DNA of 50,271 nucleotides from a virus (IMGVR_UViG_3300037467_000958:1-50271); one strand, 5' to 3'. Positions 1,305 through 47,622 are shown, counted from the first letter of the stretch. Program-made: numbers and translations. Notes: a model not told the origin generated them from the letters alone.

Positions 1305-1335
1305 GTATACAAATAGTGTCGTCTAGGGTATACTA
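1305..1335 (+). promoter_or_regulatory. SigF-like (forespore) promoter
   Basis: GTATA-N16-GGGTATACTA versus B. subtilis SigF consensus GYATA-N15-GGnnAnAHTR; spacer is 1 nt long. Confidence 0.55.
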
Positions 1336-1339
1336 CCTG

Positions 1340-1368
1340 TCATAACCGCTAAATACACGGCATAGAAT
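1340..1368 (+). promoter_or_regulatory. SigE-like (mother cell) promoter
   Basis: TCATAAC-N14-CATAGAAT matches SigE consensus in sequence and spacing; RBS AAAGGAGG follows. Confidence 0.65.
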
Positions 1369-1391
1369 ACATCAAAGGAGGATTTTCAAAT

Positions 1392-1922
1392 ATGGTTCCA
1401 TTGGCACTAGGGAAAGTGTGTGCAGCTTGCGGGAAGGAGAGGAAAAGCAAGGCTCTGCGGTACGACACGGAAAGTTTCAACCCGTATTGTGACAACCCGT
1501 ACATTTGTAACGACGAGCATCCCAATTCAGTTAAAAATTTGATTCAGAATCAGAAGGAAACGGTTCTTGTACCGCATGAGGACGCCGTTAATGCCTACCG
1601 GGAGCATCTTTCAGCCGTATACAAGGATTCGGACATCGTGCAAAAGATTCACCGGATGCTCACCGATCCGATTACGATCCGGGTACAGAAGCCCGAAATG
1701 GCAAAATTTCTTGTGGAGTTTCAGCAGGAAAACGATCTTGACAGCCTATCGGAGACGATCCGGTATTGTGTCGAAGTTGTGATGGAAAACCGGGGCATGT
1801 TTATCAAAGAACATCGTGACGCAAAAGCTGAATTAAAGCGCGTTGAAACGGTAAAAGAAGCCATTCAGGAAGTTGTGAAACCAAAAGATGTAACCGTACC
1901 GGATGACGATCTAACGTTTTAA
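1392..1922 (+). CDS. Putative regulator: N-terminal Zn finger plus ribbon-helix-helix-like domain
   Basis: CAAC...C....IC...H cluster; ITIRVQKPEMAKFLVEFQQENDLDSLSETIRYCVE fits the RHH beta-alpha-alpha pattern. Confidence 0.6.
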   Translation: MVPLALGKVCAACGKERKSKALRYDTESFNPYCDNPYICNDEHPNSVKNLIQNQKETVLVPHEDAVNAYREHLSAVYKDSDIVQKIHRMLTDPITIRVQKPEMAKFLVEFQQENDLDSLSETIRYCVEVVMENRGMFIKEHRDAKAELKRVETVKEAIQEVVKPKDVTVPDDDLTF

Positions 1923-1931
1923 TGGGAGGAC

Positions 1932-2654
1932 GTGGGCATGGAGCCTTTAAAGATTAGACTAGACGACAAGCCGAATTTGCTGAAAGCCCTCGCGGAAGAT
2001 CGAGAAAAGGCGCGTGAAGTAATCGGCACTTTTATTGAACTAATCGAGGAATCTTTTGCCTCCGGTTGGGTCGATATTGCCGAGCAGCTTCACCCCAAAC
2101 TTGGGTTTAAAGACCTAGTTCGGGGCATCCTCCGGGGGTCTTTGGACTTAAAAGGCATCAATCCTGAAGCGTATGACGCGCTTAAAATCGAGGTTCACCC
2201 GCTGTCTATTCTTCAGCCTCGAAAGAACTATTTGGACGGCGGGATGAAATACACGAATTGGCGCAACTATTTCAAACTTCCGGACGATGCTGGCATAGGG
2301 GAAGAAACTGTCGCCCAAATCTTCCGGACGATGCTCCGAAACATGAAGTATATCGACATTGGAAAGCTGCGGACATTCCTCGAAGCAAATCAAGTTGTCA
2401 CGTACCGGGGCTTGGGTGATGAACAGATAATGAAATTGCCCTTTTACCCGGCCCTGAAGTATCAGAAAGCTATTGGAGAGTTACATGTCGGTAAATTTCA
2501 CGACGATACCGGGTTTTTCGATTGTGGAGAAATCAAACTGGAAGATGGCGTGCCTGAAGCGTGCCCGGCGTGTAAACACCAGTATTTAACTATTCTCGAT
2601 CTATCCGATTATGCACTCTGCGAAGCCTGCAACGCGGGTTTTAAAATCGTATGA
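1932..2654 (+). CDS. Hypothetical protein with C-terminal Zn ribbon
   Basis: GGGAGG RBS; CPAC...CEAC. Confidence 0.8.
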   Translation: MGMEPLKIRLDDKPNLLKALAEDREKAREVIGTFIELIEESFASGWVDIAEQLHPKLGFKDLVRGILRGSLDLKGINPEAYDALKIEVHPLSILQPRKNYLDGGMKYTNWRNYFKLPDDAGIGEETVAQIFRTMLRNMKYIDIGKLRTFLEANQVVTYRGLGDEQIMKLPFYPALKYQKAIGELHVGKFHDDTGFFDCGEIKLEDGVPEACPACKHQYLTILDLSDYALCEACNAGFKIV

Positions 2655-2860
2655 AGTGGCTCGCGTATATCGGAATTACGTTGAACGTCATCCCGTTCCT
2701 GATTTTCGAATACCAAGTCTTGATGTATAACCCGCTGCTTCTTTTCGATCCGATCACACAATTTAAAGTGACATGGAGTTGTATGCTGGCTCCGATTACA
2801 TGGCTCGGAACGGCTCTCATTATCTTCAGTCAAATCCCCTTTCGCCGGAAATCTCGGTGA
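2651..2860 (+). CDS. Small membrane protein
   Basis: Two hydrophobic segments, basic tail, ATGA-coupled. Confidence 0.7.
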   Translation: MKWLAYIGITLNVIPFLIFEYQVLMYNPLLLFDPITQFKVTWSCMLAPITWLGTALIIFSQIPFRRKSR

Positions 2861-2864
2861 AAGG

Positions 2865-2894
2865 CTGGTATTTCGACATGACATGTGTTACAAT
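2865..2894 (+). promoter_or_regulatory. SigA-type extended -10 promoter (phage promoter family)
   Basis: TGtTACAAT preceded by ACATGACATG; weak -35; contains TTCGACA. Confidence 0.55.
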
Positions 2895-2925
2895 GTACGT
2901 AAAATCGATTGAAAGGAGAAACATC

Positions 2926-3129
2926 ATGTTACCCATCTTGCATCCTATGAGCAAAACTTCCATTGAATTAAGACGCGCCATTAACCGACTTTTGGTATTC
3001 ATTGAACAGAACCCAAGTGACGATCACGTTACAAGCGGCGCGGTTCAGGAATTGATTGACGATTTGAAAGCTGCCCGGTCGCATATTCCGCATAGCTTAC
3101 GCGATCCGGACATTGAAGAAAATAAATGA
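2926..3129 (+). CDS. Hypothetical protein
   Basis: Start chosen at ATG 2926 after AAAGGAG. Confidence 0.7.
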   Translation: MLPILHPMSKTSIELRRAINRLLVFIEQNPSDDHVTSGAVQELIDDLKAARSHIPHSLRDPDIEENK

Positions 3130-4751: not shown

Positions 4752-4755
4752 GTGT

Positions 4756-5049
4756 ATGAAATTCGTAATGGAAAGGCCCGGCAAGTGGATGGAACGTTTG
4801 GAGGATGCCCCCTTACCTGCCGGACATGAAACGCCGTTTTTAAGGTTCGATCACACCGATGATTTCAGCACGAATTTTAGCTTTATGCCGGATTTGCCTT
4901 ATTCGGAGGAACATACCGTTGAAGCGTTCATCGATAACAGCCTTCTTCAGTTCGACTATCTCGGATATCATATCCTTAACTGGTTCCCTCACGGCAAAAC
5001 GACCTACAAATTTATGAAGGCGACAGCCGATTTCTTTTTTGGGGAGTGA
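4756..5049 (+). CDS. Hypothetical protein
   Basis: ORF in operon context with AGGAG RBS. Confidence 0.7.
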   Translation: MKFVMERPGKWMERLEDAPLPAGHETPFLRFDHTDDFSTNFSFMPDLPYSEEHTVEAFIDNSLLQFDYLGYHILNWFPHGKTTYKFMKATADFFFGE

Positions 5050-5321: not shown

Positions 5322-5341
5322 AAATTTTTGGACTTAAATGA

Positions 5342-5371: not shown

Positions 5372-5393
5372 AGAAACATGGAGGCGATGAAAG

Positions 5394-9461: not shown

Positions 9462-9480
9462 AAGGGGGTTCGCCCCCTTT
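9462..9480 (+). terminator. Hairpin, probable terminator or processing site
   Basis: AAGGGGG-TTCG-CCCCCTT; short U tract. Confidence 0.55.
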
Positions 9481-9569
9481 GGATAGGGTCGTCCAGAGGC
9501 GGCGACGTCCGCGACAATAGCCGTTCGAGTCGGCTATTCGACTCTATCCAAAGCGGACGAACATCGGGG

Positions 9570-15251: not shown

Positions 15252-15276
15252 AAAGGACGCCTAAATAACGGCGTCC
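15250..15276 (-). terminator. Intrinsic terminator at convergence of lipoprotein and relaxase genes
   Basis: GGACGCC...GGCGTCC hairpin with A-run on the left (U-run on - strand). Confidence 0.7.
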
Positions 15277-15824
15277 AGCGGCTTCTTTTGGATGATGTTA
15301 AACCCTGTCGGGGGTTTAATCTTGTACTCATAATCAGACACGATCCAAAGCGTTTTCGCGTCGTGCTGTTTACGTATAAACGATTCTGCAAAGGCATCCA
15401 CTTTCTGCTGCATCCGTTTTTGGCTTATGACCGTGCGCTGTAACTCGATTAGGATTGCTTCGCCATCCAATCGAGTGTAAGCATCCGGACTGTACTCGTC
15501 GTTCACTTTCGGTTCGACTTCATATACCTTGGGCTGGCCGATCTGTATGTAGAGGTCGGCTATCCCGAGATAGTGCTGAATCTTAGGCGATTGCGGGTGA
15601 ATAACTGAAGGATTCGGCATGTAGAGGTACGGTCGATCCTTCACTTGCGGAATCGGCAGAACGTATCCATCCCTTGTCAGCCGCTTCATTACTCGGTTTA
15701 TGGTCAGTACCGGGCGGGCTACTTCAGGACAAGTCAGCGAAGCCAGTTGATCCCTTGACAAAACTCGGAAGTGTTTCAGAAGTTTCACGATCCTCTGATC
15801 CCTCTGCATCATCTTGGTTTCCAC
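15261..15824 (-). CDS. Replication-relaxation family protein (wHTH + PD-(D/E)XK)
   Basis: RD..I...L..FR.L.RDQL, H.L.IAD.Y, PDAY, IELQRT. Confidence 0.85.
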   Translation of the reverse strand: METKMMQRDQRIVKLLKHFRVLSRDQLASLTCPEVARPVLTINRVMKRLTRDGYVLPIPQVKDRPYLYMPNPSVIHPQSPKIQHYLGIADLYIQIGQPKVYEVEPKVNDEYSPDAYTRLDGEAILIELQRTVISQKRMQQKVDAFAESFIRKQHDAKTLWIVSDYEYKIKPPTGFNIIQKKPLDAVI

Positions 15825-16914
15825 TCTTTCTGTACTTATTCAGGATTGCGACGGACTGTTCAGCCGACATGTAGGGAACCTGAACCGTTTCCGGGAATCC
15901 GTCGAGAATAATCGCCCGGCCCTTAATCCGTCCAATATGCGCTGCATCCGGCAAGTCGAGAATGATCTTGGAATTCGTTTCATCTGCCGTAGCAAAACAT
16001 ATCCTCGATAACATGTTTGCCTTAGTTCGCGGTGCTAATACATCCTTGGCATCCGGTCGTTGGGAGGCGATAACTAAATGTATGTCAACATATCCGGCTG
16101 TCTCTGCTATTTCAGTGACCATCTCTTGAATAACATCGTCGTCCGCAAATCGGCCGTATTCATCGACGATTACAAAAAGCGGATTGACCTTTTCGTCGGG
16201 ATACCGTTCGCGCAACTCTTTGAGGTCAACGCAATCCCCCTTGGACTTCAGCAACGCCTTCCGTTCCGCCACTTGATTTTGCACATCAGCGAGGAATACC
16301 CGAGCCTCCCCACCCGTTTCGGCGGTCTTAACTTGCGGGAGATTTTTGAACGGGTAAAGGTCAGTTATCTTATTATCAATGAAGATGATTTCGATGTTAC
16401 CGTTCGTCACATCTATAAGATGGGTAGCCAAAAGCCGGAGGAATACCGACTTGCCCATCCGGGTTGCCCCGCCTACAAGAAGATGGCAACACGTTTCATC
16501 CCAGAAATCGAGCATCTTCAGCCCGAACGGAGTAAAAAGCGGAATCGAAAGTCCCTCTTTCGGAAGTTGGTCAGTATAGTTCATGCTTGAACTGAAAGGG
16601 GCGATGCCGAATTGAATCTCGAAAGTCGCACCGTAAAGCTGCTTGAACCGGACGTGTGTAGCGGTCGCCTGTTCCAACTCTTTCTTGTGCGCGGTTAAGT
16701 CCTCGTCGGTGATGCCGTAGGGTAGCGACACTTCCGCAACGACGGATTCTCCATCCCGGCGAACGTTCTTCAGATTCACGCCCTCGAAACATTTCATATT
16801 TTCGAAGTACGCATTGGCCGAGCGTTTGATTACCGCTGTCGGCGTAAGCCTTTTGGCCCCGAACACGGAACCCGCCATCATCGCGGCCCCGACAGTCATA
16901 AGAGACAAGATCAT
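15724..16914 (-). CDS. FtsK/SpoIIIE-family ATPase with N-terminal membrane anchor
   Basis: HLLVGGATRMGKS, VIVDEY, SQRPD, GRAI...VQVPY. Confidence 0.92.
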   Translation of the reverse strand: MILSLMTVGAAMMAGSVFGAKRLTPTAVIKRSANAYFENMKCFEGVNLKNVRRDGESVVAEVSLPYGITDEDLTAHKKELEQATATHVRFKQLYGATFEIQFGIAPFSSSMNYTDQLPKEGLSIPLFTPFGLKMLDFWDETCCHLLVGGATRMGKSVFLRLLATHLIDVTNGNIEIIFIDNKITDLYPFKNLPQVKTAETGGEARVFLADVQNQVAERKALLKSKGDCVDLKELRERYPDEKVNPLFVIVDEYGRFADDDVIQEMVTEIAETAGYVDIHLVIASQRPDAKDVLAPRTKANMLSRICFATADETNSKIILDLPDAAHIGRIKGRAIILDGFPETVQVPYMSAEQSVAILNKYRKSGNQDDAEGSEDRETSETLPSFVKGSTGFADLS

Positions 16915-16930: not shown

Positions 16931-16964
16931 TTAATATGTTATGCGGATATATTATGTTACATTC
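16931..16964 (-). promoter_or_regulatory. Putative sporulation-sigma (SigE/SigK/SigG-like) promoter of the FtsK cassette
   Basis: - strand GAATG-N16-CATAACAT, plus overlapping CATATTA; no good SigA pair. Confidence 0.45.
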
Positions 16965-25466: not shown

Positions 25467-28400
25467 TTACACTCCCTTCACAAGCGGTCTGCCCGCCAGT
25501 TTGAAGTGGTCGTAAACGGCTTCTGTCGATTTGAAAAGCAACGTACTGCTTTTGCTTTTGCGGAACGACACGACAACCAATTTCAATTCCCCGGAATCTG
25601 AAACGAGCATAGGTAGATAAATAAGGGCTTCGGTCGGCAAGGTTGTCGGAATGCTGAACTTGTAATTTCCGAGAGCGACACTTCCGCTGACTGTATCGGA
25701 AGATAGCCGAACATCTTGCGTACTTCCCCTTACAACCGATTCACTTGTCGTGGAGTTAGGCTCGAAGTAAAGTCCTGCCGTTGGTACAAAGCGGTAGTTT
25801 CCGCTCGATGCAAGCGGCATCCGTTTCAACGTAAGACTGTCAAACGTCGTCAGTACACCTTCACTTGTAAACTTATCCGCGATCAAGTTGTAATCTGCTG
25901 TCGGAGACGGCAGGCGAGTAGTGATATTTTTATCGCCTACCGGATCGCCATCCGAAGTCGCAGACCCCGTTCCAAGCGTCGTGATAATCGGCGTACCTAC
26001 CGCGAGTATCTTCGACTTGCTAATCGAACCTTGCCCCTGATACGGAACATACCGATACCACAGTTCCACTTGGGACGCTTCGCCAAGATTACCGCCGAGA
26101 TACTTGCTCGATTTCGCCGGGAACCAAAGTTTCATTTCCTTCGTCTCGGGCCGGATTTTCACGATGTTGCTCTTGGTGTAATCCACGTAATCGGCAAGGG
26201 TTACGTCCAGTTTCACATAGTCGGTGTAAATGTTCGACGGATTTGTTGCCGATGCCGGGTAAGTGGAGTGAACGAGAACGTAAATTTTTTGGTTATTGTC
26301 GATATATGTGTTACTGGACGTCGTTTGGCTGATGGTTGCAGGCGAAGATGTCGTATTCGTGCCGTAAAGCGTATCTCCGCTTGTAGACCAAGAACCCTTC
26401 CACGCTTTCAACGTCGCTCCGTTCGTCAGAACCGAAGCATTATCCCCCGAGCCGTACCCTGTCCACGAAATGGTCATGGAACGAACCGCCGCTTTCAGTT
26501 GCGCCGTCGTCATGCCAAGATGCGAGAGGTCGAATTCGTAAATAAACTGTGCGTACTCTCCCGTTGTGCCTGCGGAATAGAAGTCAAGTACACCGTCTTG
26601 TTTAACAATGCTGCTGTATTCCGAATTGCTGATTTCCCCTGTTACGGTTGTGGGATTTGGAAACGTTGAACCGTGCGTCCATAACCCCCGATGCGGAACC
26701 TCCACCGTACTCCCCGCCACTTTGCCGAGGAAGTTGAGCGTGACTTTCCGCTTGCGCCCCGGTGTCCATTCGGTTGCGGTTACACCCTTTTGAAGTTTTA
26801 TTTGGGACACGTTAACCGTAACCGCCGAAACACTTGGAGTTCGGAAGTATAATCTGATAGCAGAAGAAGTGTCTGCGTCCGCTTTTCCAGTAAGCGTAAT
26901 CTTAGTCGGTGTAGAGGAAAGCGTTACAGATTGTGCCGCCATTTGCACTGAACTGTCGCGGTATAGTTGAACATTAATCGTTCCGCTACCGCTTACCAAG
27001 CATGTTGCGGTAAAATACTCTCCCGCTTTTGCACTTCCTGCCGATAATACACCACCTTCGGGTGAAGATGTTCCGGGCGTAGCGATGGTAATAGTGCCGG
27101 GAGTTGTTACAGATAAAGCACCGCCGTTATACGACGCCCATCCAGAAGTGTCTAGTGGGAATGCTTGGTTTTGATCTAGCATATTTTCCGACAATACCGG
27201 GAACGGGTTCGTCGGCTGCAAGGTCGTAAACCCGCTTGCTTCCGTTGTGCTGTCAAACGCAGAGATTGCCGACGTTTTAAGCGTGATGGACAGTTCAACA
27301 TAGTCCGTATTTATGGTCGAAGCCGTTACGCCGTCCGATGCGTCTGCGTAAGCTAGAGCGTAATAGAAGCCGTTAGAATCCACTACGGAAGAAATTACGG
27401 TGTTATTTCTAGTCAGTGATGTAACCGTTCCGTTGGTGTGGGAAGCTGGGCTTGCATTCCATGCGCCATTAATCCATTCAGCAACATAAGCCTTGTTTCC
27501 CGCAAGACCCGAACCGTATCCATTCCAAGTACAACTAATCTGCGTGATGTTGTTTGTCAGCCATGTCTTTTTACTCGCCGTACCGTCTGCCGGGATTTCG
27601 CCGTACTTATCTTCGATAGCCCGGATGAGGTCGAATTGGAAAACGTGCTGGCTTACGTCATTCAAAGTTGCGCGGCTTGTTGTCGCCAGCGTTCCATCCA
27701 AGGCAAAAGCGTTATTATAGTTTGCTTGGCTAACCTCTGTACCTCCCGGTGATGGAGTGAGTGAGGTTGTCGTGATGATACCTTTAAGCGTGTGTGGGAC
27801 TAAATCTGTACTTCCCGACACTTTCCCCGCAAAATTCGCCTTCACGCTCACCGTATTCGCTGCAAGAAGTTCATCCCCGTTGACCGCTGCTTTCAGAATA
27901 TCCGTCGCCACTTGCGGGAGTCCCTTGCCTGCCGGATAGTTGACCGCATACGTGATCGTGATGTTACTTGTGTTCGTGGTCGGAGCCGTGGTGATCGTGT
28001 ACGTTGCATCCTTTGTGCCGAGTCCGCTCCATGTTCCGGCGATGCCCGTGGCAGTGACGGTTGGGAGGGATGAAGATGTCTCCAAAAGGTATGTCCCGCT
28101 TACAAAGTTAAGTCCTGCGCCGCCTGTCCACGAAAGCGTAGCCGTTGAATTGGTAGAATCAACGGAATCCACGGTCAAATCTGTTACCGTGTAAGTCGAA
28201 ACTCCGTCGAAGCGGGTTACATGATCGCTTGCCGTAAACTTCGAAACGTCGCTAACTTTAATTGTCGTTGGTGAAGTTACGCCTGTTTTATCCTCTAGGA
28301 TTTTCGAGAATCCCGCCGTTGCTCCGGTTATTCCGCCATAATCCGAGTGAATCTTAATCGTATCCCCGATAGCCCATACGCCCGATGTTGCTTGCGTCGG

Positions 28401-31400
28401 GATAACATGCTTCGGACGGTTTACGCCGTTCCAAGTTGGATCGACCACATCCACGACGGTTATCGACTGCTGCGGGTCGCCGTAGGCGATCCGTTGCCCG
28501 TTGAAGTTGCCACCGTTTATGCCCTCGTAGTGGAACGTCGAAAGCGTGCCGGACTGAACCATGTGACCGTTGGCGAGATAGTCTTTGTCGAGATACCAGC
28601 GTCCGTAAGGGACGAATGGGTTTACGACGGAGCCTTTTTCTAGTTGCGGGAGCAACTTCGATACGTCGTCGGGAACGTTGGTTGAAGTTGGATTATTACT
28701 CAGACGAATCTTTACTTTTGCCGTATTTGCGGCTGTCGTGAATGTTCCCGAAGGCGCAAAAGCTGTTCCTTGCACTACAAAAGTGCCGTCGCTTTGATAC
28801 TCAAAAACGGTAATCGAACCCCCGTTTGAACTAACGGAATATTGCGTGTTTGGTTGAACCGGGATGAGGTTAATCGTTCTAATTCGAGAAGTTGTACTTG
28901 CGTTATTGCCGCTTGAATCATAACTGCCTTGCTCCCACGCATCCACCGTTGTCGGGCAAAGATTCTCCACAAAATTCGGGTACGAATCCACATACGGGAA
29001 CAACGCACCGATCTTATCCCCGCCAGTCCAGTTCGGGTCAACGTCGATTAGGTTGTAGGTGGCTTGGTCGATTTCGTATAAGCGGAATCCGTCATAGTTC
29101 GCCTTGTCGTTTACACTTGCGGGAGTTAAAACGATGTTCAAAGCCCCGCTGGTATATTGGAACTTTTGATAGCCCACGACCCATTGCCCTGTCGCGCTTG
29201 TGGTAAGGGTGCTGTATCCACCTTGCAAGGCAAAGTTAGCGGTACTGATTCCATAATTCGTCGAAGCCCCGGATTGAAGATAACTTTCACCAACAAAAAC
29301 ATAATACTTTCCGCTGGTGAGAAGCGAGTCGATCGCCATAGCGACGGTAGAAGTTCCTGCCGACGTTCTTTGAAGTTGTTGCGACGATTTTCCGTATTTG
29401 AAAATTGAAGTTGAAATGGACTTCGTTATAAAACTATTTGTGCCTTGGAAACTGAATCCGTCAGCTACGCCGTCGCTGTTAGAATCAACTTCAAAACTAC
29501 CTAGTAATCCGAACTTGTTAGACAAATCCACGCTCGTTCCATCAGCCCGCTTAACCGCCGTGCTGTTGAGTGTTTGCGCCGGCCCAAGCGGAGCCCTCCG
29601 AAGACCGTAAACGTCCTTTTGCGCCAGTTTCGTATCCTTGGTCGTCAGCGCACCGCGCATAAGACTGTCGAACGCAGACTCCGTTTCCATCCCCGGCATA
29701 AAGTTAACCGGAATCCGATGCCGAAGGTCGATAATGTCCGATGCGTCGATGATGTTGGAGTAAAGGCCGTCGGGACGGTCGGATAGAAGGCTCCACGTAC
29801 CCGTGCCGATGCTTGCTTGTGTTGTTTGGTCAGTATTAATATTTTGAACCGTAATTTTATTGCTTCCGTCTTTTGAAAGCACAAGAATACGGTGAGCAGT
29901 TGTAACGGCAAAATTATGAATAATGTCCCCAACTTGAATATTGTTGTAGTCAGTGGTTGCAACGGTAATTTGTTGCGTTTGCCCATATGCCAAAGACGGA
30001 GAAAATGTTACTGATTGCGTAGTTTGGTAATAATCCCTTGCACCGTTCAGATTATCCCGCCGATACCCGCCGCTGTTACGGCGCTTGATGCGGAAAAGGG
30101 GAATCGCGTAAACGTATCCGTCATTTGTGGCGAGGGTGGTTTTAGCTGTGCTGGAACCGTCGCCAGCGATATAGAGGCCGATGTCATCTGTGAAGATTTT
30201 CTTGCCTGTGTTCGATGAAATAGCGCGTAAAGGCGTGCCATAAAATGCAGAATCCGAACCCCCGGTTTCCCAAGCCGTCTTGACTATCGGTGCCGCATTT
30301 CCACCTTGTGCTGTAACGTCCCACCCGGATAAACCTGATGCTCCGCTTGCACCCAAACCTTCTGGGTTTCGCCCAAAATCCACGCCATCGACCACGCGAA
30401 TACGCCAAGACATGGTAACCGGAGTGTTGGTCGGAAAATAGGCTTCCAAGAATACCAAATCTTCGCGATACCCATACGTCGGCGGGGCTGAAAGGGCTTG
30501 CGTAATGACAGCCGAATTTGTGATCTTGAAGCCGTTCAAAATTGCAGCGAATTTGCCGAGATAGAACGTATTCGCAACAGTTGCGCTTGTTCCGACCGCA
30601 CCGTTCGCCGGGGAAGTCGTTGCGCTGATAACTGAAGAATAATCATAAACGCCCGACATATTGCGCGTCCGTTCGTAGTCTGCCCGAGCCGTATTAACTG
30701 CAACAGCCTCGGATACAGTTCCCGCGCCGATTGCGCCGTTCAGCGTTGCGTACACAATATCAATGGCATTTTGAGCGTTACCAGCACCGGGAACATTGCC
30801 TGCATACGTGTGATTCGCCGCGCTTTTTGCGTCGGTTGCCAATTTTGCCAGCGTGACCGCTTCGCTTGCGATTTCAGCCGTGCCAACCGCACCGTCTGCG
30901 ATTTCGGACGAACCGACCGCGCCGGGCGCGATTTTCGCTGCTGTCACCGAATCGTTTGCCAGTTGAGACGTGCCAACGGCTTCATCGGCAATCGCCGCCG
31001 TTACGACCGCTTTCGCGCCGATTTTCGTCGAAGTAACCGACGCCGGAGCCAGCTTATTGCCGTCAACGTTGCCGTCCATAATCTTATCAGCCGTAACCGC
31101 ATTGATAGCAATCGCGTTGTTTACAACTGAAGAAGCCGCCATTTTGCTTGCCGTTACCGATCCGTCGGCAATTTTGGCCGTTCCTACCGCGCCATCGGCC
31201 AGTTTCGTTGCACCTACTGCGCCGTCTAAGATTTCCGTGGAAGTGACCGCGTTCGGAGCCAATTCGGAAGTGCCTACAGCATCGGCTTGAATAGCCGCAG
31301 AGCCAACGGCGTCTGTGGCTATTTTTGCCGCCGTAACCGCGCCGTCTGCGATCTTAATTGTGGTTACGTTGCCATCGGCAATCTTGACCGTTGTGACCGA

Positions 31401-31709
31401 AGAATCCGTTATCGCCGCCGTGTTAACAGCGTTCGCCGCGAGGCTTGCCGCGATTGTCAGCACATCGCCGGAAAGGGACAGCGTAATGCTCGTTCCTTCA
31501 CGGAATTTAATACTATTCACCGCTGCATCGAGCGTTGCCGTGGCCTTGGTCGTGCCGTCGGCGTTTTGCACGATAAACGACTTCGCAAGGCGGGCGTAGT
31601 TGTCGTTGATTGCGGTTACGAGCGTTGTTCGATCCTGCTCGTACTCGCTTTCGTGCATCGTTTCGCCGTCGTTCCAGTTCTTTAGGCTGTTAATATCGAT
31701 TTGTGCCAA
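25467..31709 (-). CDS. Tail fibre / receptor-binding protein
   Basis: 2080 aa; 10-residue (G/D)AVTxxKIA repeats, CBM-like beta domains, S/T/G-rich. Confidence 0.85.
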   Translation of the reverse strand: MAQIDINSLKNWNDGETMHESEYEQDRTTLVTAINDNYARLAKSFIVQNADGTTKATATLDAAVNSIKFREGTSITLSLSGDVLTIAASLAANAVNTAAITDSSVTTVKIADGNVTTIKIADGAVTAAKIATDAVGSAAIQADAVGTSELAPNAVTSTEILDGAVGATKLADGAVGTAKIADGSVTASKMAASSVVNNAIAINAVTADKIMDGNVDGNKLAPASVTSTKIGAKAVVTAAIADEAVGTSQLANDSVTAAKIAPGAVGSSEIADGAVGTAEIASEAVTLAKLATDAKSAANHTYAGNVPGAGNAQNAIDIVYATLNGAIGAGTVSEAVAVNTARADYERTRNMSGVYDYSSVISATTSPANGAVGTSATVANTFYLGKFAAILNGFKITNSAVITQALSAPPTYGYREDLVFLEAYFPTNTPVTMSWRIRVVDGVDFGRNPEGLGASGASGLSGWDVTAQGGNAAPIVKTAWETGGSDSAFYGTPLRAISSNTGKKIFTDDIGLYIAGDGSSTAKTTLATNDGYVYAIPLFRIKRRNSGGYRRDNLNGARDYYQTTQSVTFSPSLAYGQTQQITVATTDYNNIQVGDIIHNFAVTTAHRILVLSKDGSNKITVQNINTDQTTQASIGTGTWSLLSDRPDGLYSNIIDASDIIDLRHRIPVNFMPGMETESAFDSLMRGALTTKDTKLAQKDVYGLRRAPLGPAQTLNSTAVKRADGTSVDLSNKFGLLGSFEVDSNSDGVADGFSFQGTNSFITKSISTSIFKYGKSSQQLQRTSAGTSTVAMAIDSLLTSGKYYVFVGESYLQSGASTNYGISTANFALQGGYSTLTTSATGQWVVGYQKFQYTSGALNIVLTPASVNDKANYDGFRLYEIDQATYNLIDVDPNWTGGDKIGALFPYVDSYPNFVENLCPTTVDAWEQGSYDSSGNNASTTSRIRTINLIPVQPNTQYSVSSNGGSITVFEYQSDGTFVVQGTAFAPSGTFTTAANTAKVKIRLSNNPTSTNVPDDVSKLLPQLEKGSVVNPFVPYGRWYLDKDYLANGHMVQSGTLSTFHYEGINGGNFNGQRIAYGDPQQSITVVDVVDPTWNGVNRPKHVIPTQATSGVWAIGDTIKIHSDYGGITGATAGFSKILEDKTGVTSPTTIKVSDVSKFTASDHVTRFDGVSTYTVTDLTVDSVDSTNSTATLSWTGGAGLNFVSGTYLLETSSSLPTVTATGIAGTWSGLGTKDATYTITTAPTTNTSNITITYAVNYPAGKGLPQVATDILKAAVNGDELLAANTVSVKANFAGKVSGSTDLVPHTLKGIITTTSLTPSPGGTEVSQANYNNAFALDGTLATTSRATLNDVSQHVFQFDLIRAIEDKYGEIPADGTASKKTWLTNNITQISCTWNGYGSGLAGNKAYVAEWINGAWNASPASHTNGTVTSLTRNNTVISSVVDSNGFYYALAYADASDGVTASTINTDYVELSITLKTSAISAFDSTTEASGFTTLQPTNPFPVLSENMLDQNQAFPLDTSGWASYNGGALSVTTPGTITIATPGTSSPEGGVLSAGSAKAGEYFTATCLVSGSGTINVQLYRDSSVQMAAQSVTLSSTPTKITLTGKADADTSSAIRLYFRTPSVSAVTVNVSQIKLQKGVTATEWTPGRKRKVTLNFLGKVAGSTVEVPHRGLWTHGSTFPNPTTVTGEISNSEYSSIVKQDGVLDFYSAGTTGEYAQFIYEFDLSHLGMTTAQLKAAVRSMTISWTGYGSGDNASVLTNGATLKAWKGSWSTSGDTLYGTNTTSSPATISQTTSSNTYIDNNQKIYVLVHSTYPASATNPSNIYTDYVKLDVTLADYVDYTKSNIVKIRPETKEMKLWFPAKSSKYLGGNLGEASQVELWYRYVPYQGQGSISKSKILAVGTPIITTLGTGSATSDGDPVGDKNITTRLPSPTADYNLIADKFTSEGVLTTFDSLTLKRMPLASSGNYRFVPTAGLYFEPNSTTSESVVRGSTQDVRLSSDTVSGSVALGNYKFSIPTTLPTEALIYLPMLVSDSGELKLVVVSFRKSKSSTLLFKSTEAVYDHFKLAGRPLVKGV

Positions 31710-34290: not shown

Positions 34291-34566
34291 TCACCCTTTC
34301 TTAGCACCGCCGAGTTTCGACGCCGTCGTAGCAGCACCCGCGATTTGTCCGTTTGTAACCACACTGCTACCAATCGAACCGGAAGGATCGCCGCTTGTTA
34401 TCTTAACGTTTATAGCTTCCGTTAAAGCTGCATTAGATTTCACAACCGGAGGCTGAATAAGTTTTTCCAGCAAGGCGTTCGTTTTCCGCTGTTCTTCAAT
34501 CAGCGTATATATCATTTGATCCTGCCGGGTTCCGAGTATGCCAAATTCTTCGGTTTTCATCGTCAT
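34291..34566 (-). CDS. Hypothetical virion-associated protein
   Basis: AAAGGAG RBS; one TxxKL-type repeat like those in the tail fibre. Confidence 0.7.
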   Translation of the reverse strand: MTMKTEEFGILGTRQDQMIYTLIEEQRKTNALLEKLIQPPVVKSNAALTEAINVKITSGDPSGSIGSSVVTNGQIAGAATTASKLGGAKKG

Positions 34567-34576
34567 TTCTCCTTTG

Positions 34577-34610
34577 AAAAAGCCCCCTATCTGCTAGGGA
34601 CAGGGGGCTT
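34577..34610 (-). terminator. Intrinsic terminator after major capsid gene
   Basis: AAGCCCCCT...AGGGGGCTT with U-run on the - strand. Confidence 0.8.
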
Positions 34611-34619
34611 AATTATTTA

Positions 34620-35504
34620 TTACGGATTTGCACCGAGGATTCCGCGATGATCGCTCCAACCTACAGAGAATCTTGTGCGGCCTTTATACTTCGCTTGGTC
34701 GGTATCGAAATCGGTCGTAGACTTGAAGTTCAAGCGTTCCCGCCAGAAGAAGTTCAACTGGTGAAGCTGGCTGTCCAGCAGGAACCAGTTGTCAGCGTCC
34801 GTTAGGTAGTCGAGAACAACGACATTGAAACGGCCCTTCATCGGGTTAATATCGTTGTTGTTCGTTCCCGGCAACTGAACGGATTTCGCAATCTTTTCAG
34901 CCGTGAACTCCAATGCACCCGGAACAATCAGCGTATCGACATTCATTTGGATTTTCAGGCCACGCTCGTCTACTTGCTCGCGTGCCAATTTGAAAGCAAT
35001 TTCCAAGTTGGCTTCCGATAGTGCCAGCGCACCGATGGAGTTGGTAGACGTGCCGCCGTCGAGCCGCTTATGCGTGGCAGAAATAAGTGCTTCGCCTTTG
35101 TAAGCCTTCGGGTCGGCTGTAAAGGCGTTGTTCAAAATTGCAGCAGCTTTCGTTTCAATCGTAGCGCGTGCAGCACGGGCAAGAGCCTTCGGCATTTTGT
35201 TGATTTGGGTGTACTGTTCGTCATCGACCAGTTCCTTTTCAACAATGAAGCCTTTGGAGAAGGTCGTATGCTTGTACTGCACGATGTCCGTATCGGTCGG
35301 GTCTTCGTATTGCGTGGAATCCGTCGTTCCCTTGGCATCCCACATCGAGAATCCGCCCATCCGGAGGTCGGTTTCAATCGCCTTTTTGGACGACATTACA
35401 TTGAAAACGCGGCTGTATTGCTCCGGTTTTTCCTTGTAAGTTTCGAAGAAAATCTTACGCAGGCCCGGTTCAAGAAGTTTCGAAAAATTACCGGAATGAA
35501 GCAT
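34620..35504 (-). CDS. Major capsid protein (Mu gpT-like HK97 fold)
   Basis: L.PGL..IF, LIVP.ALEF.A, N..NP, YLTD...WFL, R...GW.D.RG. Confidence 0.9.
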   Translation of the reverse strand: MLHSGNFSKLLEPGLRKIFFETYKEKPEQYSRVFNVMSSKKAIETDLRMGGFSMWDAKGTTDSTQYEDPTDTDIVQYKHTTFSKGFIVEKELVDDEQYTQINKMPKALARAARATIETKAAAILNNAFTADPKAYKGEALISATHKRLDGGTSTNSIGALALSEANLEIAFKLAREQVDERGLKIQMNVDTLIVPGALEFTAEKIAKSVQLPGTNNNDINPMKGRFNVVVLDYLTDADNWFLLDSQLHQLNFFWRERLNFKSTTDFDTDQAKYKGRTRFSVGWSDHRGILGANP

Positions 35505-36907: not shown

Positions 36908-36936
36908 AGTTTACAAGAAGTTGTATGCCCTGTCAA
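36908..36936 (-). promoter_or_regulatory. SigA promoter for scaffold/capsid operon
   Basis: TTGACA-N17-TAAACT on the - strand. Confidence 0.7.
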
Positions 36937-36946: not shown

Positions 36947-36976
36947 GAATACACGTATCGGTTTTAGGGTATAATA
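36947..36976 (+). promoter_or_regulatory. SigF-like promoter of the antisense hydrolase gene
   Basis: GAATA-N15-GGGTATAATA; no SigA -35 at the correct spacing from the embedded TATAAT. Confidence 0.6.
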
Positions 36977-37034
36977 CAATCTGAAGAAAGGATGGTGTTG
37001 TGCCTTCAGCGGTAGAGTCCATATTTACTTCGGT

Positions 37035-37349
37035 TTGATGATATATGTAATGCTGTGGCAAGGCGGGATCGTTTTTAACCCCATCGCCTTTGCGATAGGG
37101 TGCATTTTTCCGGATGTGGATCATCACAAGTCCCCCGCAGGAAAAGTTATGCCTTTATGGCATTGGTTCCGGCATCGCGGGTTCGTGCATTCGATTCCGG
37201 GGATGGCAGTATCGGCGTTGCCAATACTGCTCATTTGGGGCTGGAAAATGGCCCTGTCGTTTGCGGCCGGATTTTTCATTCACTTGGCCCTCGATTCATG
37301 CACCCCGAGCGGAATTGAATGGTTCCAAAAACCAAAGAGCCGTCACTAG
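37035..37349 (+). CDS. YdjM-like membrane metal-dependent hydrolase (5' end problematic)
   Basis: G..FPDVDH, HRG..HS, G...HL.LD..T..GI; the first His (SGRVH) lies upstream without an in-frame ATG/GTG/TTG. Confidence 0.8.
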   Translation: MMIYVMLWQGGIVFNPIAFAIGCIFPDVDHHKSPAGKVMPLWHWFRHRGFVHSIPGMAVSALPILLIWGWKMALSFAAGFFIHLALDSCTPSGIEWFQKPKSRH

Positions 37350-37361
37350 GACGGCTCTTTT
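37334..37361. terminator. Bidirectional terminator between hydrolase and portal
   Basis: AAAGAGCCGTC...GACGGCTCTTTT. Confidence 0.85.
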
Positions 37362-42066: not shown

Positions 42067-42107
42067 TTGTATTCCACCTTTTTCTTTTCATTGTATACGA
42101 ATCTCCT

Positions 42108-43735: not shown

Positions 43736-43952
43736 CTTTCTTCACCTTCCTATGGGCGATTTCGGAAATGCGCTGGTAATCTGTCCAATTCCAGTCGCGC
43801 CCGAGTTCTTGGCGCGTCCGGAATGTCGTGGATGTGGAACTGAAGGATACGAGGTCAACGATCCCGGCTGCGGGATCGTGTACGGCGGTGATTATGGCGG
43901 CATGGTTGTTTTTTGTCAAAACAATCCGGCCGACTGAAGGAGTTGGGTTCAT
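43722..43952 (-). CDS. Conserved phage hypothetical protein
   Basis: MNPTPSVGRIV...AAIITAV; ATGA-coupled start at 43952. Confidence 0.7.
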   Translation of the reverse strand: MNPTPSVGRIVLTKNNHAAIITAVHDPAAGIVDLVSFSSTSTTFRTRQELGRDWNWTDYQRISEIAHRKVKKDAEI

Positions 43953-44203
43953 TGGCCGATGGACTTCTGCAAGGCGTAGCCTTCCAGTTCCCACAACCTG
44001 TTTTTGATGCGCTTGGCGCAAATTTCATAACCGATGGCAACTGAAAAGTTCGCCGGGTCTACGCAGCTTGCGGACTCTACGATAATAAAGCCGTTGGGTA
44101 AGCGGCACTTCATAACAAACGTTTTGTTGAGCCACGTGTCGGTTTCGACGATTGATTGACTGAAAAGGGTGTCGATTTGCTCGTGGGTTACCGTGTTTTT
44201 CAT
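43949..44203 (-). CDS. Gp49/Sf6 gp66 family protein (Acb4-like nucleotide sponge)
   Basis: L.NGF...ESASCVDPANF...IG..IC...I...LW.LEGY.LQ. Confidence 0.85.
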   Translation of the reverse strand: MKNTVTHEQIDTLFSQSIVETDTWLNKTFVMKCRLPNGFIIVESASCVDPANFSVAIGYEICAKRIKNRLWELEGYALQKSIGQ

Positions 44204-44255
44204 TTTGGGAAATCCCCTTCTAATTTAAATTATAACGCTTGTCCTGTTACATAAC

Positions 44256-44284
44256 ATATTACATCATGGATGATAGGTTGTCTA
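44256..44284 (-). promoter_or_regulatory. Putative SigA promoter of the leftward operon
   Basis: TAGACA-N17-TAATAT on the - strand; another TATAAT lies closer to the RBS. Confidence 0.45.
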
Positions 44285-44604
44285 TAAAAATTTGGAATTT
44301 TATTTATTTGCTTTGCAAAGGAGGTATTTTGGGGCTGCCCCTGTATTTGTATACGTGGGAATTTTTAAATGTGAATTGAGATGGGATTTGCATTCCCATC
44401 TGCCTGCGTGCGTGTACGCGCGCGCGTGGGACTCCGTTTGCAGCCACCCCTCATCAAATCATACCCTACCACCCTATCCTACCCCGCCTGCCAGCTTGGA
44501 GGCGACCGAACAAAAATCAAATTAATTTCCGTCGAATCGGAATATTCATACCCCGAACCGTGTATACTGGTATCAAGTCAGCACCGAGCATACAAAATTG
44601 GCTG

Positions 44605-44634
44605 TTGACAGAGCATACAGGTTCATGATAAGAT
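44605..44634 (+). promoter_or_regulatory. SigA early promoter
   Basis: TTGACA-N18-TAAGAT, extended TG. Confidence 0.75.
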
Positions 44635-44638
44635 GAAG

Positions 44639-44724
44639 TCAGTTAGGGAACGGTGGCAATGAGTCAGGGGTCGACGAGCCTGACCACGCAGGGCGGAACC
44701 GACCGCCGGAAACCTCCTAATTGA
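44639..44724 (+). ncRNA. Putative structured leader RNA 1
   Basis: Closing stem TCAGTTAGG/CCTAATTGA; inner GTCAGG/CCTGAC and GGCGG/CCGCC hairpins. Confidence 0.45.
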
Positions 44725-44754
44725 AAAAAGTCGACAAAAATCTGAGGTGATGTA

Positions 44755-44937
44755 ATGACTAAGCAAGAATATGGTAAAAGACGTGTTAGGTTGTTCAAAC
44801 AATGGCAAAAAGCTGACGCAGACGACGCTTCCGCTTTACACCATGCTATGGAACAACTAGCTAACGATTTCGAAAAAGAATACGGCTATCGACCTATCGG
44901 GTCGGAATGGGAAGAACTGGCAAAAATGGAAGCATGA
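44755..44937 (+). CDS. Hypothetical early protein
   Basis: GAGGTGA RBS. Confidence 0.75.
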   Translation: MTKQEYGKRRVRLFKQWQKADADDASALHHAMEQLANDFEKEYGYRPIGSEWEELAKMEA

Positions 44938-45049
44938 CACAAACCGCGAGGTTGCGCGTGAACCGTCACGGACGGCACGGCGGGTTGGCGGGAGTCGATA
45001 AGCCTTCCATGTAATACAAAGTTTTACGGAAACGCCGAATACAAAGTGC

Positions 45050-45078
45050 TTGACATGACATGTAACACGTGTTATGAT
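45050..45078 (+). promoter_or_regulatory. SigA early promoter (phage promoter family)
   Basis: TTGACA-N17-TATGAT, extended TG. Confidence 0.85.
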
Positions 45079-45084
45079 GTAATT

Positions 45085-45315
45085 GTCAGACAGGGACGCG
45101 GTTCCAGCGTGAGAGGCCGCATTGTCGTAAGGATTTGTCTCTAGTCGCTCTAATGGCTGATGGAGGTTACAGCCGTATCAATCCTCCAGCTAGTTTCCCT
45201 TGGCCCGTAATGGGTACTGAAGGCTTAACTCCTGCATAGGGGTTGCGAGTGGGGAAATGTAGCGATGCCGCGTTAAGACTGGCGGCAACCGTTTATCGGT
45301 TAAAGTGGGCGAACA
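45085..45315 (+). ncRNA. Putative large structured leader RNA 2
   Basis: About 230 nt with no credible + strand ORF after a strong promoter; nested stems and one pseudoknot. Confidence 0.55.
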
Positions 45316-45342
45316 ATCCAAATTAAAAGGAGATTGATAAAT

Positions 45343-45516
45343 ATGTACGTATGCCAACTTTCGAAAGAAAAGCAAGACGCACTTTATGTAGATGTTGTTT
45401 TCTCGGTAATCGACTTGGGTCTGCCGGCTGTTGAACAAGTCGAAGCCATTCAAAACGCCATGAACAGCAAGCTGTCCGACCTGTCTGACCTCATCGACAT
45501 TCGCAAATACCAGTAA
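45343..45516 (+). CDS. Hypothetical early protein enclosed by an inverted repeat
   Basis: AAAGGAG RBS; ATG 45343 (TTG 45334 is an alternative start). Confidence 0.75.
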   Translation: MYVCQLSKEKQDALYVDVVFSVIDLGLPAVEQVEAIQNAMNSKLSDLSDLIDIRKYQ

Positions 45517-45593
45517 TTTGTCGAAATGCAGCAATTCGCCCACTTTAACGGCCAAACGGTCGAATAAACCCCAATGGGAGGCGTTTATACGCT

Positions 45594-45800
45594 ATGAAAA
45601 AATTTATCGCAGGCTGGGCTTTGTCGAATCATGGAGGCGTCGGTGTTATTGAAATTGACAACTCCGGCGACGGCATGTTGGTTCAATATTACGACCACGA
45701 TCCGGAATGGGTTGAAATTCAATATGATGACGACGGCGAACCCTTTGTAAAAGTCGGCCAGCTTGAATTGCCGCTTAACGAATGTATGCGGTACGCTTGA
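45594..45800 (+). CDS. Hypothetical acidic early protein
   Basis: GGGAGG RBS. Confidence 0.8.
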   Translation: MKKFIAGWALSNHGGVGVIEIDNSGDGMLVQYYDHDPEWVEIQYDDDGEPFVKVGQLELPLNECMRYA

Positions 45801-45879
45801 AGCCGGGCGGGCGGCCTGTCTACCGACGGGCCTCTCTCCGGGCCTTACAAGCCCCAATAAAATTTGGGAGGTTGTCTAA

Positions 45880-46131
45880 ATGACGACTATTGAACTGGCA
45901 AGAGCATTCGTAAACGGTGCAACAAAAGGCAAAGCGGCTTCTTTGTCCATCGAAGGCGACAGGCTGTTCAGCTATGACACGATTATCGCACAGCGGACGC
46001 CGAATCTGACGTACCTGAACGTCACCAAGTATAGTGTGACGACGAGCAAGCACCAAACCCGCCTAAAACGGCTTCTGCCGGGCGCACAACACGTCGAAGG
46101 TATTCCTATGGGCCGCAGGCATATTGTGTAA
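45880..46131 (+). CDS. Conserved phage early protein
   Basis: LFSY.T.IA...YS.TTSKHQ motif; GGGAGG RBS. Confidence 0.8.
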   Translation: MTTIELARAFVNGATKGKAASLSIEGDRLFSYDTIIAQRTPNLTYLNVTKYSVTTSKHQTRLKRLLPGAQHVEGIPMGRRHIV

Positions 46132-46220
46132 CTGACGCCAGCCGTAAGCCGCTGAGAGCCTATCTCGGCGGTTTACACGGACGCCAGTCCGACAATACCC
46201 CAATGGGAGGCTGAAAAGCT

Positions 46221-46427
46221 ATGCAAAAGAAAATGGGCTTGTTCAAAATGTACGGATGGAAACGCACGGATTTCGGGTTCGAAATTCTATTGCCGCTGAA
46301 GAACGGCTTGTTTGTCGGTGAAAATATCAGCATGGCCGACGTGGAGCGCATGTCCGAAATTCAGCTTCAACGGGAAATCGAACGGAAAACCGCGCTTTGT
46401 AAGCATAATCAGCGGGTAGGAGGCTGA
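46221..46427 (+). CDS. Hypothetical early protein
   Basis: GGGAGG RBS module. Confidence 0.75.
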   Translation: MQKKMGLFKMYGWKRTDFGFEILLPLKNGLFVGENISMADVERMSEIQLQREIERKTALCKHNQRVGG

Positions 46428-46433
46428 AAAGCT

Positions 46434-46577
46434 ATGAAACGGTTTTTATTCGAAGTGACGTATTTGAACGGAACGGTTCAGGAAATTGAATTGTTCGCGG
46501 CCACGTTGCGGCAAGCTTGGCTTCGGTTATCTTTTTCGCAAGCGCAAAAGGTTATTTTGCTGGAAGGTGACTTGTAA
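46434..46577 (+). CDS. Small hypothetical protein (47 aa, not in ORF track)
   Basis: Same 18-nt RBS/start module as the previous gene; MKRFLFEVTY... Confidence 0.7.
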   Translation: MKRFLFEVTYLNGTVQEIELFAATLRQAWLRLSFSQAQKVILLEGDL

Positions 46578-46769
46578 TACAGATTATTTCCGTGAAACAA
46601 TGTTCCACGTCACGTGCAATCCATGAAAGCGTTTTATTTCCGAACATTACAAAATAGCGAATACATTTTAAAGTTTTTTTTCGTTAGGGTATAAAAAAAA
46701 TTTTGTTGTAAAAAATACTTTTTGCCTTTTTTTAATAATATAACAAGTAATTAAAGGAATACAAGGATA

Positions 46770-46798
46770 TTGACAATACTTTAATTATTTGTTATTCT
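46770..46798 (+). promoter_or_regulatory. SigA promoter overlapped by a 17-bp inverted repeat arm
   Basis: TTGACA-N17-TATTCT, extended TG; IR arms 46740-46756 and 46779-46795. Confidence 0.65.
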
Positions 46799-46938
46799 TG
46801 CATTGTTAGTAAAAAACAACAAAAAGTTTTTTTCCCAAGTACCCAGAAGGGAGGGGCCAAACGAATTTTTCCTTGTGTTTTCTTAGTTTTGAAAAAACTA
46901 AGCATACAAAACGCTAAAATTTTAAAGGGAGTGCTTAC

Positions 46939-47337
46939 ATGCCTAGAATGCTATCTGTATTCGCGGAAGCCGTTCTGCTGCGTATGCAGGACGGACTGGA
47001 CGAAGCTAAAACCGCCGAAATTCTGAACACGAAGTACGGTACGGCATACACGGCCGACCATGTTGCAACATTCACCAATCGCGTAATCGTCAAGCGCAGG
47101 CATCCGTATTTGATCCATGAATTGAGAGATAAGGGCTTAAAAGCGCAGGCCGTCGCGGATTTATTCGGCATCCGGGTTCAGACTGTTTATTACCACCAGC
47201 GGCAATTTCCGAAAAAGCCGTTCGGTGATATGACAATGTTTACCTATGCAGGCGCATTACAAAAAGAGTGGGAACCTGAACACAATAAATGGTTCGAACA
47301 CGGAAGGCTGCATCACGCCGTTACGTATTCTCGATAA
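46939..47337 (+). CDS. HTH DNA-binding protein
   Basis: LRDKGLKAQAVADLFGIRVQTVYYH; a second HTH-like segment N-terminally. Confidence 0.7.
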   Translation: MPRMLSVFAEAVLLRMQDGLDEAKTAEILNTKYGTAYTADHVATFTNRVIVKRRHPYLIHELRDKGLKAQAVADLFGIRVQTVYYHQRQFPKKPFGDMTMFTYAGALQKEWEPEHNKWFEHGRLHHAVTYSR

Positions 47338-47418
47338 TTCGCAAAACGGAACCGCGCATACAACCCTTTCAGCCTGTATTCGCGGTTCTCAAATTTCTTA
47401 AAAAAGGAGCATTACAAA

Positions 47419-47622
47419 TTGTTCGAAAAAGATGTAATACTACGTACAATCGAAGAATACCGTAAACAAGGCTATACGATGAAAGCCTGTTTTCAGAAAG
47501 CAGCCGCCGCTGTGAATTTTTCCCGCTCTATCGAATCCATTAAATATACGTATTACGAGGAACGCAAAGCCTTAAAACGCTATAGGGAGTTAACCGGGGA
47601 CTATTCAGACATACAAAATTAA
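47419..47622 (+). CDS. Small helical protein, possibly RsfA/Myb-like
   Basis: AAAGGAG RBS; D..L..T......G.T....F.......N..RS pattern. Confidence 0.55.
   Translation: MFEKDVILRTIEEYRKQGYTMKACFQKAAAAVNFSRSIESIKYTYYEERKALKRYRELTGDYSDIQN

Follow-up and report, generated by a model that had tools for sequence, protein, structure and literature searches.

The 50,271-base stretch of DNA analysed here (IMGVR_UViG_3300037467_000958:1-50271, referred to as the window) comes from an uncultivated soil podovirus that lacks an integrase and is related to Paenibacillus larvae phage API480, and it spans the whole genome. Its best-supported feature is a two-block motif, apparently of SigF rather than SigA type, that is conserved within this phage lineage upstream of a small YdjM-family gene, a predicted moron. 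We regard it as plausible, with a probability of about 40%, that this motif represents a promoter read in the forespore. The survival of virulent phages through host sporulation has been detailed mainly for phi29, where it proceeds via Spo0A and parS; if a forespore sigma factor does read the YdjM promoter, an integrase-less phage would carry a gene timed to the spore compartment, and the conserved motif would provide a direct handle for checking that timing. If the motifs are sites for a phage regulator, they would represent ordinary phage regulation. A first-pass annotation of the same sequence had grouped the YdjM-like gene with two other loci, a cassette encoding FtsK-like and Replic_Relax-family proteins and an operon containing the genes p176 and p240, as a single dispersed spore-entry system with sporulation-sigma-type promoters at each locus. 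The three loci are independent transcription units and not one coordinated system (Table 1). At the level of motifs the promoter claim stands for the YdjM-like gene (SigF) and for the cassette (a CATA-type -10), and it fails at p176/p240, where the promoter type is not conserved in the related records G002 and G006.

The YdjM-family gene and its conserved upstream motif

The YdjM-like gene sits between portal and scaffold and is encoded on the other strand from the late genes; having a promoter and a hairpin of its own, it would be an accessory gene, or moron. It had been described as an antisense membrane hydrolase with a SigF-like promoter, and both parts of that description hold at the level of family match and motif. 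A six-frame search matches PF04307 at 37017-37325 (model positions 5-116, 64.5 bits), and the Asp and His residues are invariant among the homologs (alignment A1). These residues and the Pfam match are shared with Escherichia coli YdjM, a LexA-regulated inner-membrane hydrolase (PF04307), but the window protein is shorter (about 104-124 aa against a 176-position model) and is far under the cut-off of the YdjM equivalog NF008651 (27.7 bits against 216). Inspection by eye for a LexA box at the promoter gave nothing convincing. We note that a 12-codon upstream reading frame behind a strong ribosome-binding site (36975-37040) ends in TGATG, overlapping an ATG at 37038, and that L032, one of the related loci described below, has the same arrangement. 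Relatives of the protein in genome contigs come from archaeal and proteobacterial assemblies at 29-41% identity and are uninformative on the host.

All sigma-factor scans were done with IUPAC consensus patterns. For SigF we used GYATA (-35) and GGnnAnAHTR (-10) (Wang 2006, as quoted in bioRxiv 10.1101/2023.12.01.569620), together with the GAATA -35 variant that the same preprint describes for five Bacillus subtilis SigF promoters, and for SigE we used (T/G)(A/C)ATA(A/T)(A/T) with CATACA(A/C)T (Roels 1992, as quoted in a later paper). The SigB, SigG, parS, 0A-box and LexA-box patterns are generally known consensus sequences rather than ones from a cited source. A relaxed SigF pattern, GNATA-N14-16-GGNNANAHTR, has exactly two sites on both strands of the window, at 1305 and 36947, and both are intergenic and correctly oriented. 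Dinucleotide shuffles contain a mean of 0.35 such sites, and two or more occur in only 8 of 200. Both window sites match the form of B. subtilis SigF promoters (GYATA or GAATA with GGnnAnAHTR at 14-16 nt). Matches with up to one mismatch are more numerous, with 16 in the window and 6-19 in its relatives, these being raw counts with no shuffle null.

Homologs of the YdjM-like gene are present in the same slot and orientation in eight further IMG/VR loci, which provide five distinct upstream sequences: L026, L027, L028 (identical in L029 and L030), L031 (in the record of L009) and L032 (in the record of L003, and identical in L033). These upstream regions have diverged, and in an anchored alignment conservation is confined to the two blocks, G-N-A-T-A/T, N14-16, GGG-N-A-N3-T-R (Table 1). 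With the window included, four of the six sequences depart from the SigF consensus at no more than one position and the other two at two. Per-region shuffles give P values of 0.0145 for the window, 0.0225 for L027, 0.017 for L028, 0.16 for L032 and 0.275 for L026, with 0 of 2000 shuffles reaching the level of L031; when the relatives alone are pooled by Fisher's method, the result is p=1.4e-4 (6e-3 under conservative choices). The motif built from all six sequences occurs 0-3 times per genome, always including the YdjM promoter in carriers. SigA, SigB and SigG models are all at chance in these regions, and the best SigA scores (7-9/12 without a TG; 9/12 in the window) compare with 10-11/12 with TG at the early promoters. 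We infer that the motif may be a promoter for a forespore-type sigma factor (SigF, perhaps SigG), such that the gene would be on when the phage genome sits in the forespore and silent in ordinary lytic growth. On a portal tree the carriers of the YdjM-like gene fall in one part, with two non-carriers among them. In a separate nine-row clade the portal-scaffold slot is filled by HNH-like and other small genes on the same strand as their neighbours, and these were rejected as morons.

Table 1. Features of the window, and two-block motifs upstream of the related YdjM-like genes
Feature	Position	Strand	Details
YdjM-family small membrane metal-dependent hydrolase	37017-37349	+	PF04307 65.5 bits (cut-off 29); annotated ORF 37035-37349 from TTG, domain from 37017
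SigF-consensus match before YdjM-like gene	36947-36976	+	GAATA-N15-GGGTATAATA; 1 mismatch; per-region P 0.010-0.0145
Terminator-like hairpin after YdjM-like gene	37334-37360		11 pairs
SigA-like promoter toward scaffold and capsid genes, divergent from YdjM promoter	36908-36936	-	TTGACA-17-TAAACT; 10/12
YdjM two-block motif, L026			GAATA-15-GGGAAGGATA
YdjM two-block motif, L027			GTATT-16-GGGCATACTG
YdjM two-block motif, L028			GTATT-16-GGGTAAACTA
YdjM two-block motif, L031			GCATA-14-GGGGAGAATA
YdjM two-block motif, L032			GAATA-15-GGGCAAGCTA
FtsK/SpoIIIE-like ATPase	15724-16914	-	396 aa, one N-terminal hydrophobic segment; PF01580 38.8 bits (cut-off 24); phrog_1358 E 4.7e-53
Replic_Relax-family protein	15261-15824	-	PF13814 35.1 bits (cut-off 25.3), residues 14-61; phrog_2190 E 1.2e-24; true start probably a few codons in
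Promoter-like region before FtsK-like gene	16936-16964	-	GAATGTA-N14-CATAACAT, with GCATAACAT from 30 nt before ATG; 12/15 to SigE consensus; per-region P=0.18
Terminator-like hairpin at cassette end	15255-15276	-	7 pairs, 6 G-C, then TTTTTATTTG
SigF-consensus match before p176	1305-1335	+	GTATA-N16-GGGTATACTA; 0 mismatches to GYATA / GGnnAnAHTR; 56 nt before p176 start
Inverted repeat around both promoter blocks, candidate operator	1298-1340		ACAAGTAGTATAC / GTATACTACCTGT; 13-nt arms, 92% complementary, 17 nt apart
SigE-like match before p176	1340-1368	+	TCATAAC-N14-CATAGAAT; 13/15; per-region shuffle P=0.029; genome-wide count at chance
p176	1392-1922	+	Cys-cluster protein; core gene adjoining SNF2 helicase
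p240	1932-2654	+	Cys-cluster protein; core gene adjoining SNF2 helicase
Six strong SigA-type early promoters	44605-49193	+	TG-extended -10 in all; 10-11/12; TGTATACA or GCATACA in several spacers

The FtsK-like cassette and the p176/p240 genes

The FtsK/SpoIIIE gene predicted in the first pass is confirmed by its Pfam match, the gene predicted as a relaxase is a Replic_Relax-family member and hence a putative relaxase only, and the CATA-type -10 element before them, CATAACAT, is present as described. By eye, the FtsK-like protein contains a Walker A motif (GGATRMGKS) and a Walker B motif (VIVDEYG), and no family corresponding to a C-terminal gamma domain is matched in it at E<=0.01; its closest relative is in Cytobacillus phage Bfsp1 (43%). 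The PF13814 match of its partner involves only the N-terminal part (profile positions 2-48 of 191). The same gene pair forms operons in Bacillus-group phages and plasmids (Pony, RBClin15, PM1, Novomoskovsk, Bfsp1 and the Geobacillus vB_GthS phages), where it often directly follows the lysis genes and is preceded by a gap of its own. It is present in the related records G001, G006 and G007; G002 (93% complete), six fragmentary records and API480 lack it. Relatives are widespread, in 365 phage records (264 from Bacillus and 52 from Mycobacterium phages) and 726 plasmid records (Bacillus 302, Priestia 124, Enterococcus 101, Clostridium 45), and 467 of the plasmid records are typed as non-mobilizable. 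With its own promoter and terminator, the pair would be an autonomous cassette drawn from a module shared among plasmids and phages of Bacillota, with a putative role in handling unintegrated phage DNA by segregation or transfer. The operon has been described previously, and the accounts of it that we draw on only speculate on its role (PMC3853050, PMC11526630).

A -10-like GCATAnnnT element, of non-SigA type, begins 30 nt upstream of the first start codon in four cassettes (the window, G006, G007 and Bfsp1) and 32 nt upstream in that of G001. These are five of the ten cassettes examined, and the chance of such a match is about 0.003 per region. Because the five near cassettes carry the element and none of the five more distant ones (SP-15, Bacillus phage 1, PM1, Novomoskovsk and PK3.5) has CATAnnnT within 100 nt of the start, it is conserved in one sub-family of cassettes, the one nearest the window. 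A SigK -35 (AC at 16-17 nt) was also sought by eye and fits Bfsp1 but fails in the window, G006 and G007. A small membrane ORF starting MV(V/I)KIN..PIQVKE precedes the FtsK gene in G006 (34470-34700, L037), G007 (28500-28640, L040) and Bfsp1 (L058 2013-2216) and is missing in the window and G001. In Bacillus phage Novomoskovsk (L064 2696-3109) the genes downstream of the pair carry TrbC/VirB2-family and ParG-like annotations, which hints at an origin of the cassette in a conjugation or partition module.

The genes p176 and p240 belong to the core replication module and would be expressed early or in the middle phase. They are homologs of API480 gp60 and gp59 (24% and 26% identity; E 7e-5 and 4.5e-15), and the homologs adjoin the helicase gene in API480, G002 and G006. 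The first-pass label of a Zn-finger/RHH operon is partly sustained in that Cys clusters are seen by eye in both proteins, although neither has a confident Pfam or PHROG match; the best for p240 is DUF7130, with 18.3 bits against a 35-bit cut-off, and a search of a protein atlas with p240 gave a poor model and no usable match. The RHH part is not, as the 69-aa product of the ORF at 2651-2860 is hydrophobic and falls into no Pfam or PHROG family. Of the tandem SigF-like and SigE-like promoters proposed upstream, the SigF match at 1305 is perfect, a level never reached when the 110 nt upstream of the gene are shuffled 2000 times; the SigE-like match is of a type whose genome-wide count is no greater than in shuffles (see below). 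The 1305 site also doubles as a weak SigA site (TATACA-17-TATACT, 9/12), and SigA, SigB and SigG models are at chance in this region. The promoter type is not kept among relatives: G002 has TTGCAG-18-TATAAT, G006 is at chance for both SigF and SigE, and API480 has no gap at this position. By eye, G006 does have an inverted repeat of similar kind, CCATGTAGTTA / TAACTACATGG. We take the p176/p240 promoter to be overlapped by a dyad-symmetric candidate operator and its SigF likeness to be incidental or at most secondary.

Sporulation promoters or phage regulation

Several observations weigh against the forespore-promoter reading and the sporulation-type promoters more generally. At the YdjM loci, the L026 and L032 promoters are individually at chance, the homologous loci have common ancestry and are thus not fully independent, and the per-region shuffles preserve base composition only. 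A low shuffle P can itself be false, as a one-mismatch SigF match in Bfsp1 (P=0.004) overlaps a ribosome-binding site and is evidently spurious. The SigA and SigF consensus patterns are also close, as ordinary SigA promoters in G006 (TTGCATA ... TGGTACACTA) are within one mismatch of the SigF consensus. The YdjM reading frame in the window is open and conserved upstream of the TTG at 37035 and has no canonical start for the conserved N-terminus, the equivalent codon being ATG in L031 and GTG in L032. As for the cassette, its -10-like element is absent from the distant cassettes, and the SigE two-block score at the FtsK loci is at chance (per-region P 0.16-0.19), such that assignment of the element as a mother-cell sigma site is not supported by the score. 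SigE two-block matches across the window are likewise at chance, with 10 at >=12/15 against 11.2 in shuffles and one at >=13/15 against 1.9. The comparison with homologs that the first-pass annotation had called for favours the YdjM motif (five further sequences) and the cassette -10 but not the p176/p240 promoter.

A further point against a forespore promoter is that G[ACT]ATAC recurs between the genes of this phage, so that the -35-like block of the YdjM motif may be a regulator site. Ten of 19 GTATAC sites and eight of 12 GAATACA strand counts are within the same 2.9 kb of intergenic DNA. These sequences and GCATACA show strong intergenic enrichment and are located in or just upstream of strong SigA promoters, including TGTATACA in the spacers of three early ones. 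It is thus possible, although we think it somewhat unlikely, that the motifs are phage-regulator sites or weak factor-dependent SigA promoters, with G[ACT]ATAC and the inverted repeats as operators and the sporulation likeness a coincidence. The 13-nt inverted repeat around the 1305 site fits such a scheme, as do ATGTAACA, which by eye is common to the FtsK promoter, the late promoter region and the early promoter at 45050, and a 132-aa protein encoded at 46939-47337 with weak helix-turn-helix matches, all under cut-offs. Perfect -10 hexamers (TATAAT and TATACT) are also present inside the two window SigF sites; overlap of this kind with a good SigA -10 hexamer has been reported for the rho promoter (bioRxiv 10.1101/2023.12.01.569620). 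The relatives argue against regulation by such sites at the YdjM gene: the L026, L027 and L028 promoters lack GTATAC, yet keep G-N-A-T-A/T and GGG at a spacing of 15-16. More generally the block-to-block spacing is constant at 14-16, as for a sigma factor, whereas the apparent repeat spacing (by eye) varies from 23 to 28, and the TG of the SigA promoters in this group is replaced by GG in all six YdjM promoters. Reading of the YdjM promoter by the general-stress factor SigB appears highly improbable. The -10 blocks GGGTAT, GGGTAA and GGGCAT do resemble the SigB -10 (GGGTAT), but two-block SigB matches carry 2-4 mismatches at best (per-region P 0.05-1.0 in all seven regions), the SigB -35 GTTT is absent, and the conserved T-R at -10 positions 9-10 is outside the SigB consensus. 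A forespore-type sigma factor at the YdjM promoter is the reading we favour. If B. subtilis yfhP is a YdjM-family member, as it probably is, host members of the family would themselves be sporulation genes. A published list of the SigK regulon includes yfhP (PMC517825).

The wider spore-entry system is speculative. As first put forward, the phage would read forespore SigF and mother-cell SigE or SigK, lysis would be silenced, and the FtsK-like pump and the Replic_Relax protein would move the genome into the forespore, a model that we consider improbable as a whole. Streptomyces TraB moves plasmid DNA and provides a comparison for such a pump. The conserved SigF-type motif at the YdjM gene, the CATA-type -10 in half of the cassettes including that of the phi29-like Bfsp1, and the lack of an integrase (no match to the tyrosine integrase PF00589 or the serine recombinase PF00239 at E<=1, as the first pass had reported) are all in its favour, and a published proposal already holds that phages are helped into spore entrapment by their segregation genes (PMC10294663). 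The cassette promoter, being shared with the cultured Bfsp1, points to an experimental system for that idea. Other supports offered for the model fail. The RsfA model TIGR02894 has no match at E<=1 in six frames and none among 10 proteins scanned, contrary to the RsfA-like gene first reported; the parS half-sites number three against 1.6 expected and are not beyond chance, and the full 16-bp palindrome is absent at up to three mismatches (1.5 expected); and the 12 0A boxes are no excess over the 9.4 expected. The SigE scores are at chance, p176 and p240 belong with the replication genes, the FtsK-like protein lacks a listed gamma domain, and none of the results touches lysis control. The cassette family is also common on plasmids of non-sporeformers (e.g. 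Enterococcus, 101 of 726) and in Mycobacterium phages (52 of 365). The YdjM-like gene and the cassette do occur together in the window, G001, G006 and G007, with both absent from G002, G003 and API480, but this fits shared ancestry, as the carriers are in one part of the portal tree and as few as 2-3 label changes account for them; we therefore rejected co-occurrence as evidence of a functional linkage. It is a long shot that a lineage of virulent soil podoviruses, sharing its cassette with a phi29-like phage, runs a two-compartment programme in which a SigF-type promoter would supply a forespore membrane metallohydrolase and a mother-cell-type promoter a membrane-anchored FtsK-like pump with a DNA-binding partner to deliver or retain the unintegrated genome in the spore.

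Genome organization, relatives and host

CheckV puts the window, a whole virus record, at 100% completeness. The record is labelled linear, although the final 126 bases (50146-50271) are an exact repeat of positions 2-127 and the assembly thus closes on itself; the repeat suggests either a circular assembly or terminal redundancy. No tRNA genes or Rfam families were found in the window, and megablast of both halves against a phage collection found no near-identical phage. Plus-strand genes extend from ~44.3 kb across the ends to 15.25 kb and include those for an SNF2 helicase, a PD-(D/E)XK nuclease, AAA_24 and DUF669 proteins, a primase-helicase, a family A polymerase, MazG and a VG64-like protein. 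The minus-strand genes run from 44.2 to 17.8 kb and encode the terminase, portal, capsid, a 2080-aa fibre-like protein, holin candidates and a glucosaminidase endolysin. API480 (MK533143) is the nearest named phage, with its large terminase subunit (TerL) matched at 36% identity over 92% of the query. It has the same order of TerL, portal, scaffold and capsid genes, it shares the PolA, primase and helicase genes, its gp60/gp59 genes are similarly placed, and no integrase is annotated. It differs from the window in sequence (24-40% protein identity), GC content (39% versus about 49%) and the lack of both the cassette and the YdjM gene, with a gap of 157 nt between the portal gene and the next.

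The most likely host would be a spore-forming member of the Bacillales, since the FtsK-like protein is nearest that of Bfsp1 and the endolysin is closest to those of Brevibacillus and Lysinibacillus phages. The window thus resembles phi29 in being a virulent podovirus of a probable sporeformer, and phi29-type phages are described as able to have the lytic cycle suppressed and the genome trapped in the spore (PMC2731898). It differs in having no parS site or 0A-box excess and in its unrelated replication machinery of PolA and a primase-helicase. Searches of genome contigs for portal relatives, as a check for prophages, found none, and scans for the FtsK-like protein in viral and genome contigs and for p176 in viral contigs were also empty; these pattern-based scans need exact short peptides and hence cannot show absence.

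As the first-pass annotation stated, SigA-type promoters are present, among them the six strong early ones. The palindrome TGTATACA or ACATGT-type repeats are located in the spacers of early SigA promoters at 47626-47655, 48313-48342 and 49164-49193 and also at 45050, and G[AC]ATACA is about 10-17 nt upstream of several early -35 boxes; both are probably operators of a phage regulator. Just downstream of the 45050 early promoter, the two longest ORFs (45190-45857) are on the minus strand within the plus-strand early region; they match no family and their coding strand is uncertain. The 2080-aa late protein (25467-31709) has repeated tail-fibre PHROG matches only in its first 250 residues and no Pfam family. 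Directly upstream of the primase-helicase gene is a 24-nt inverted repeat (9468-9562) whose arms are 88% complementary and separated by 47 nt; it encloses a perfect repeat of 8 nt and may be an origin or a structured leader.

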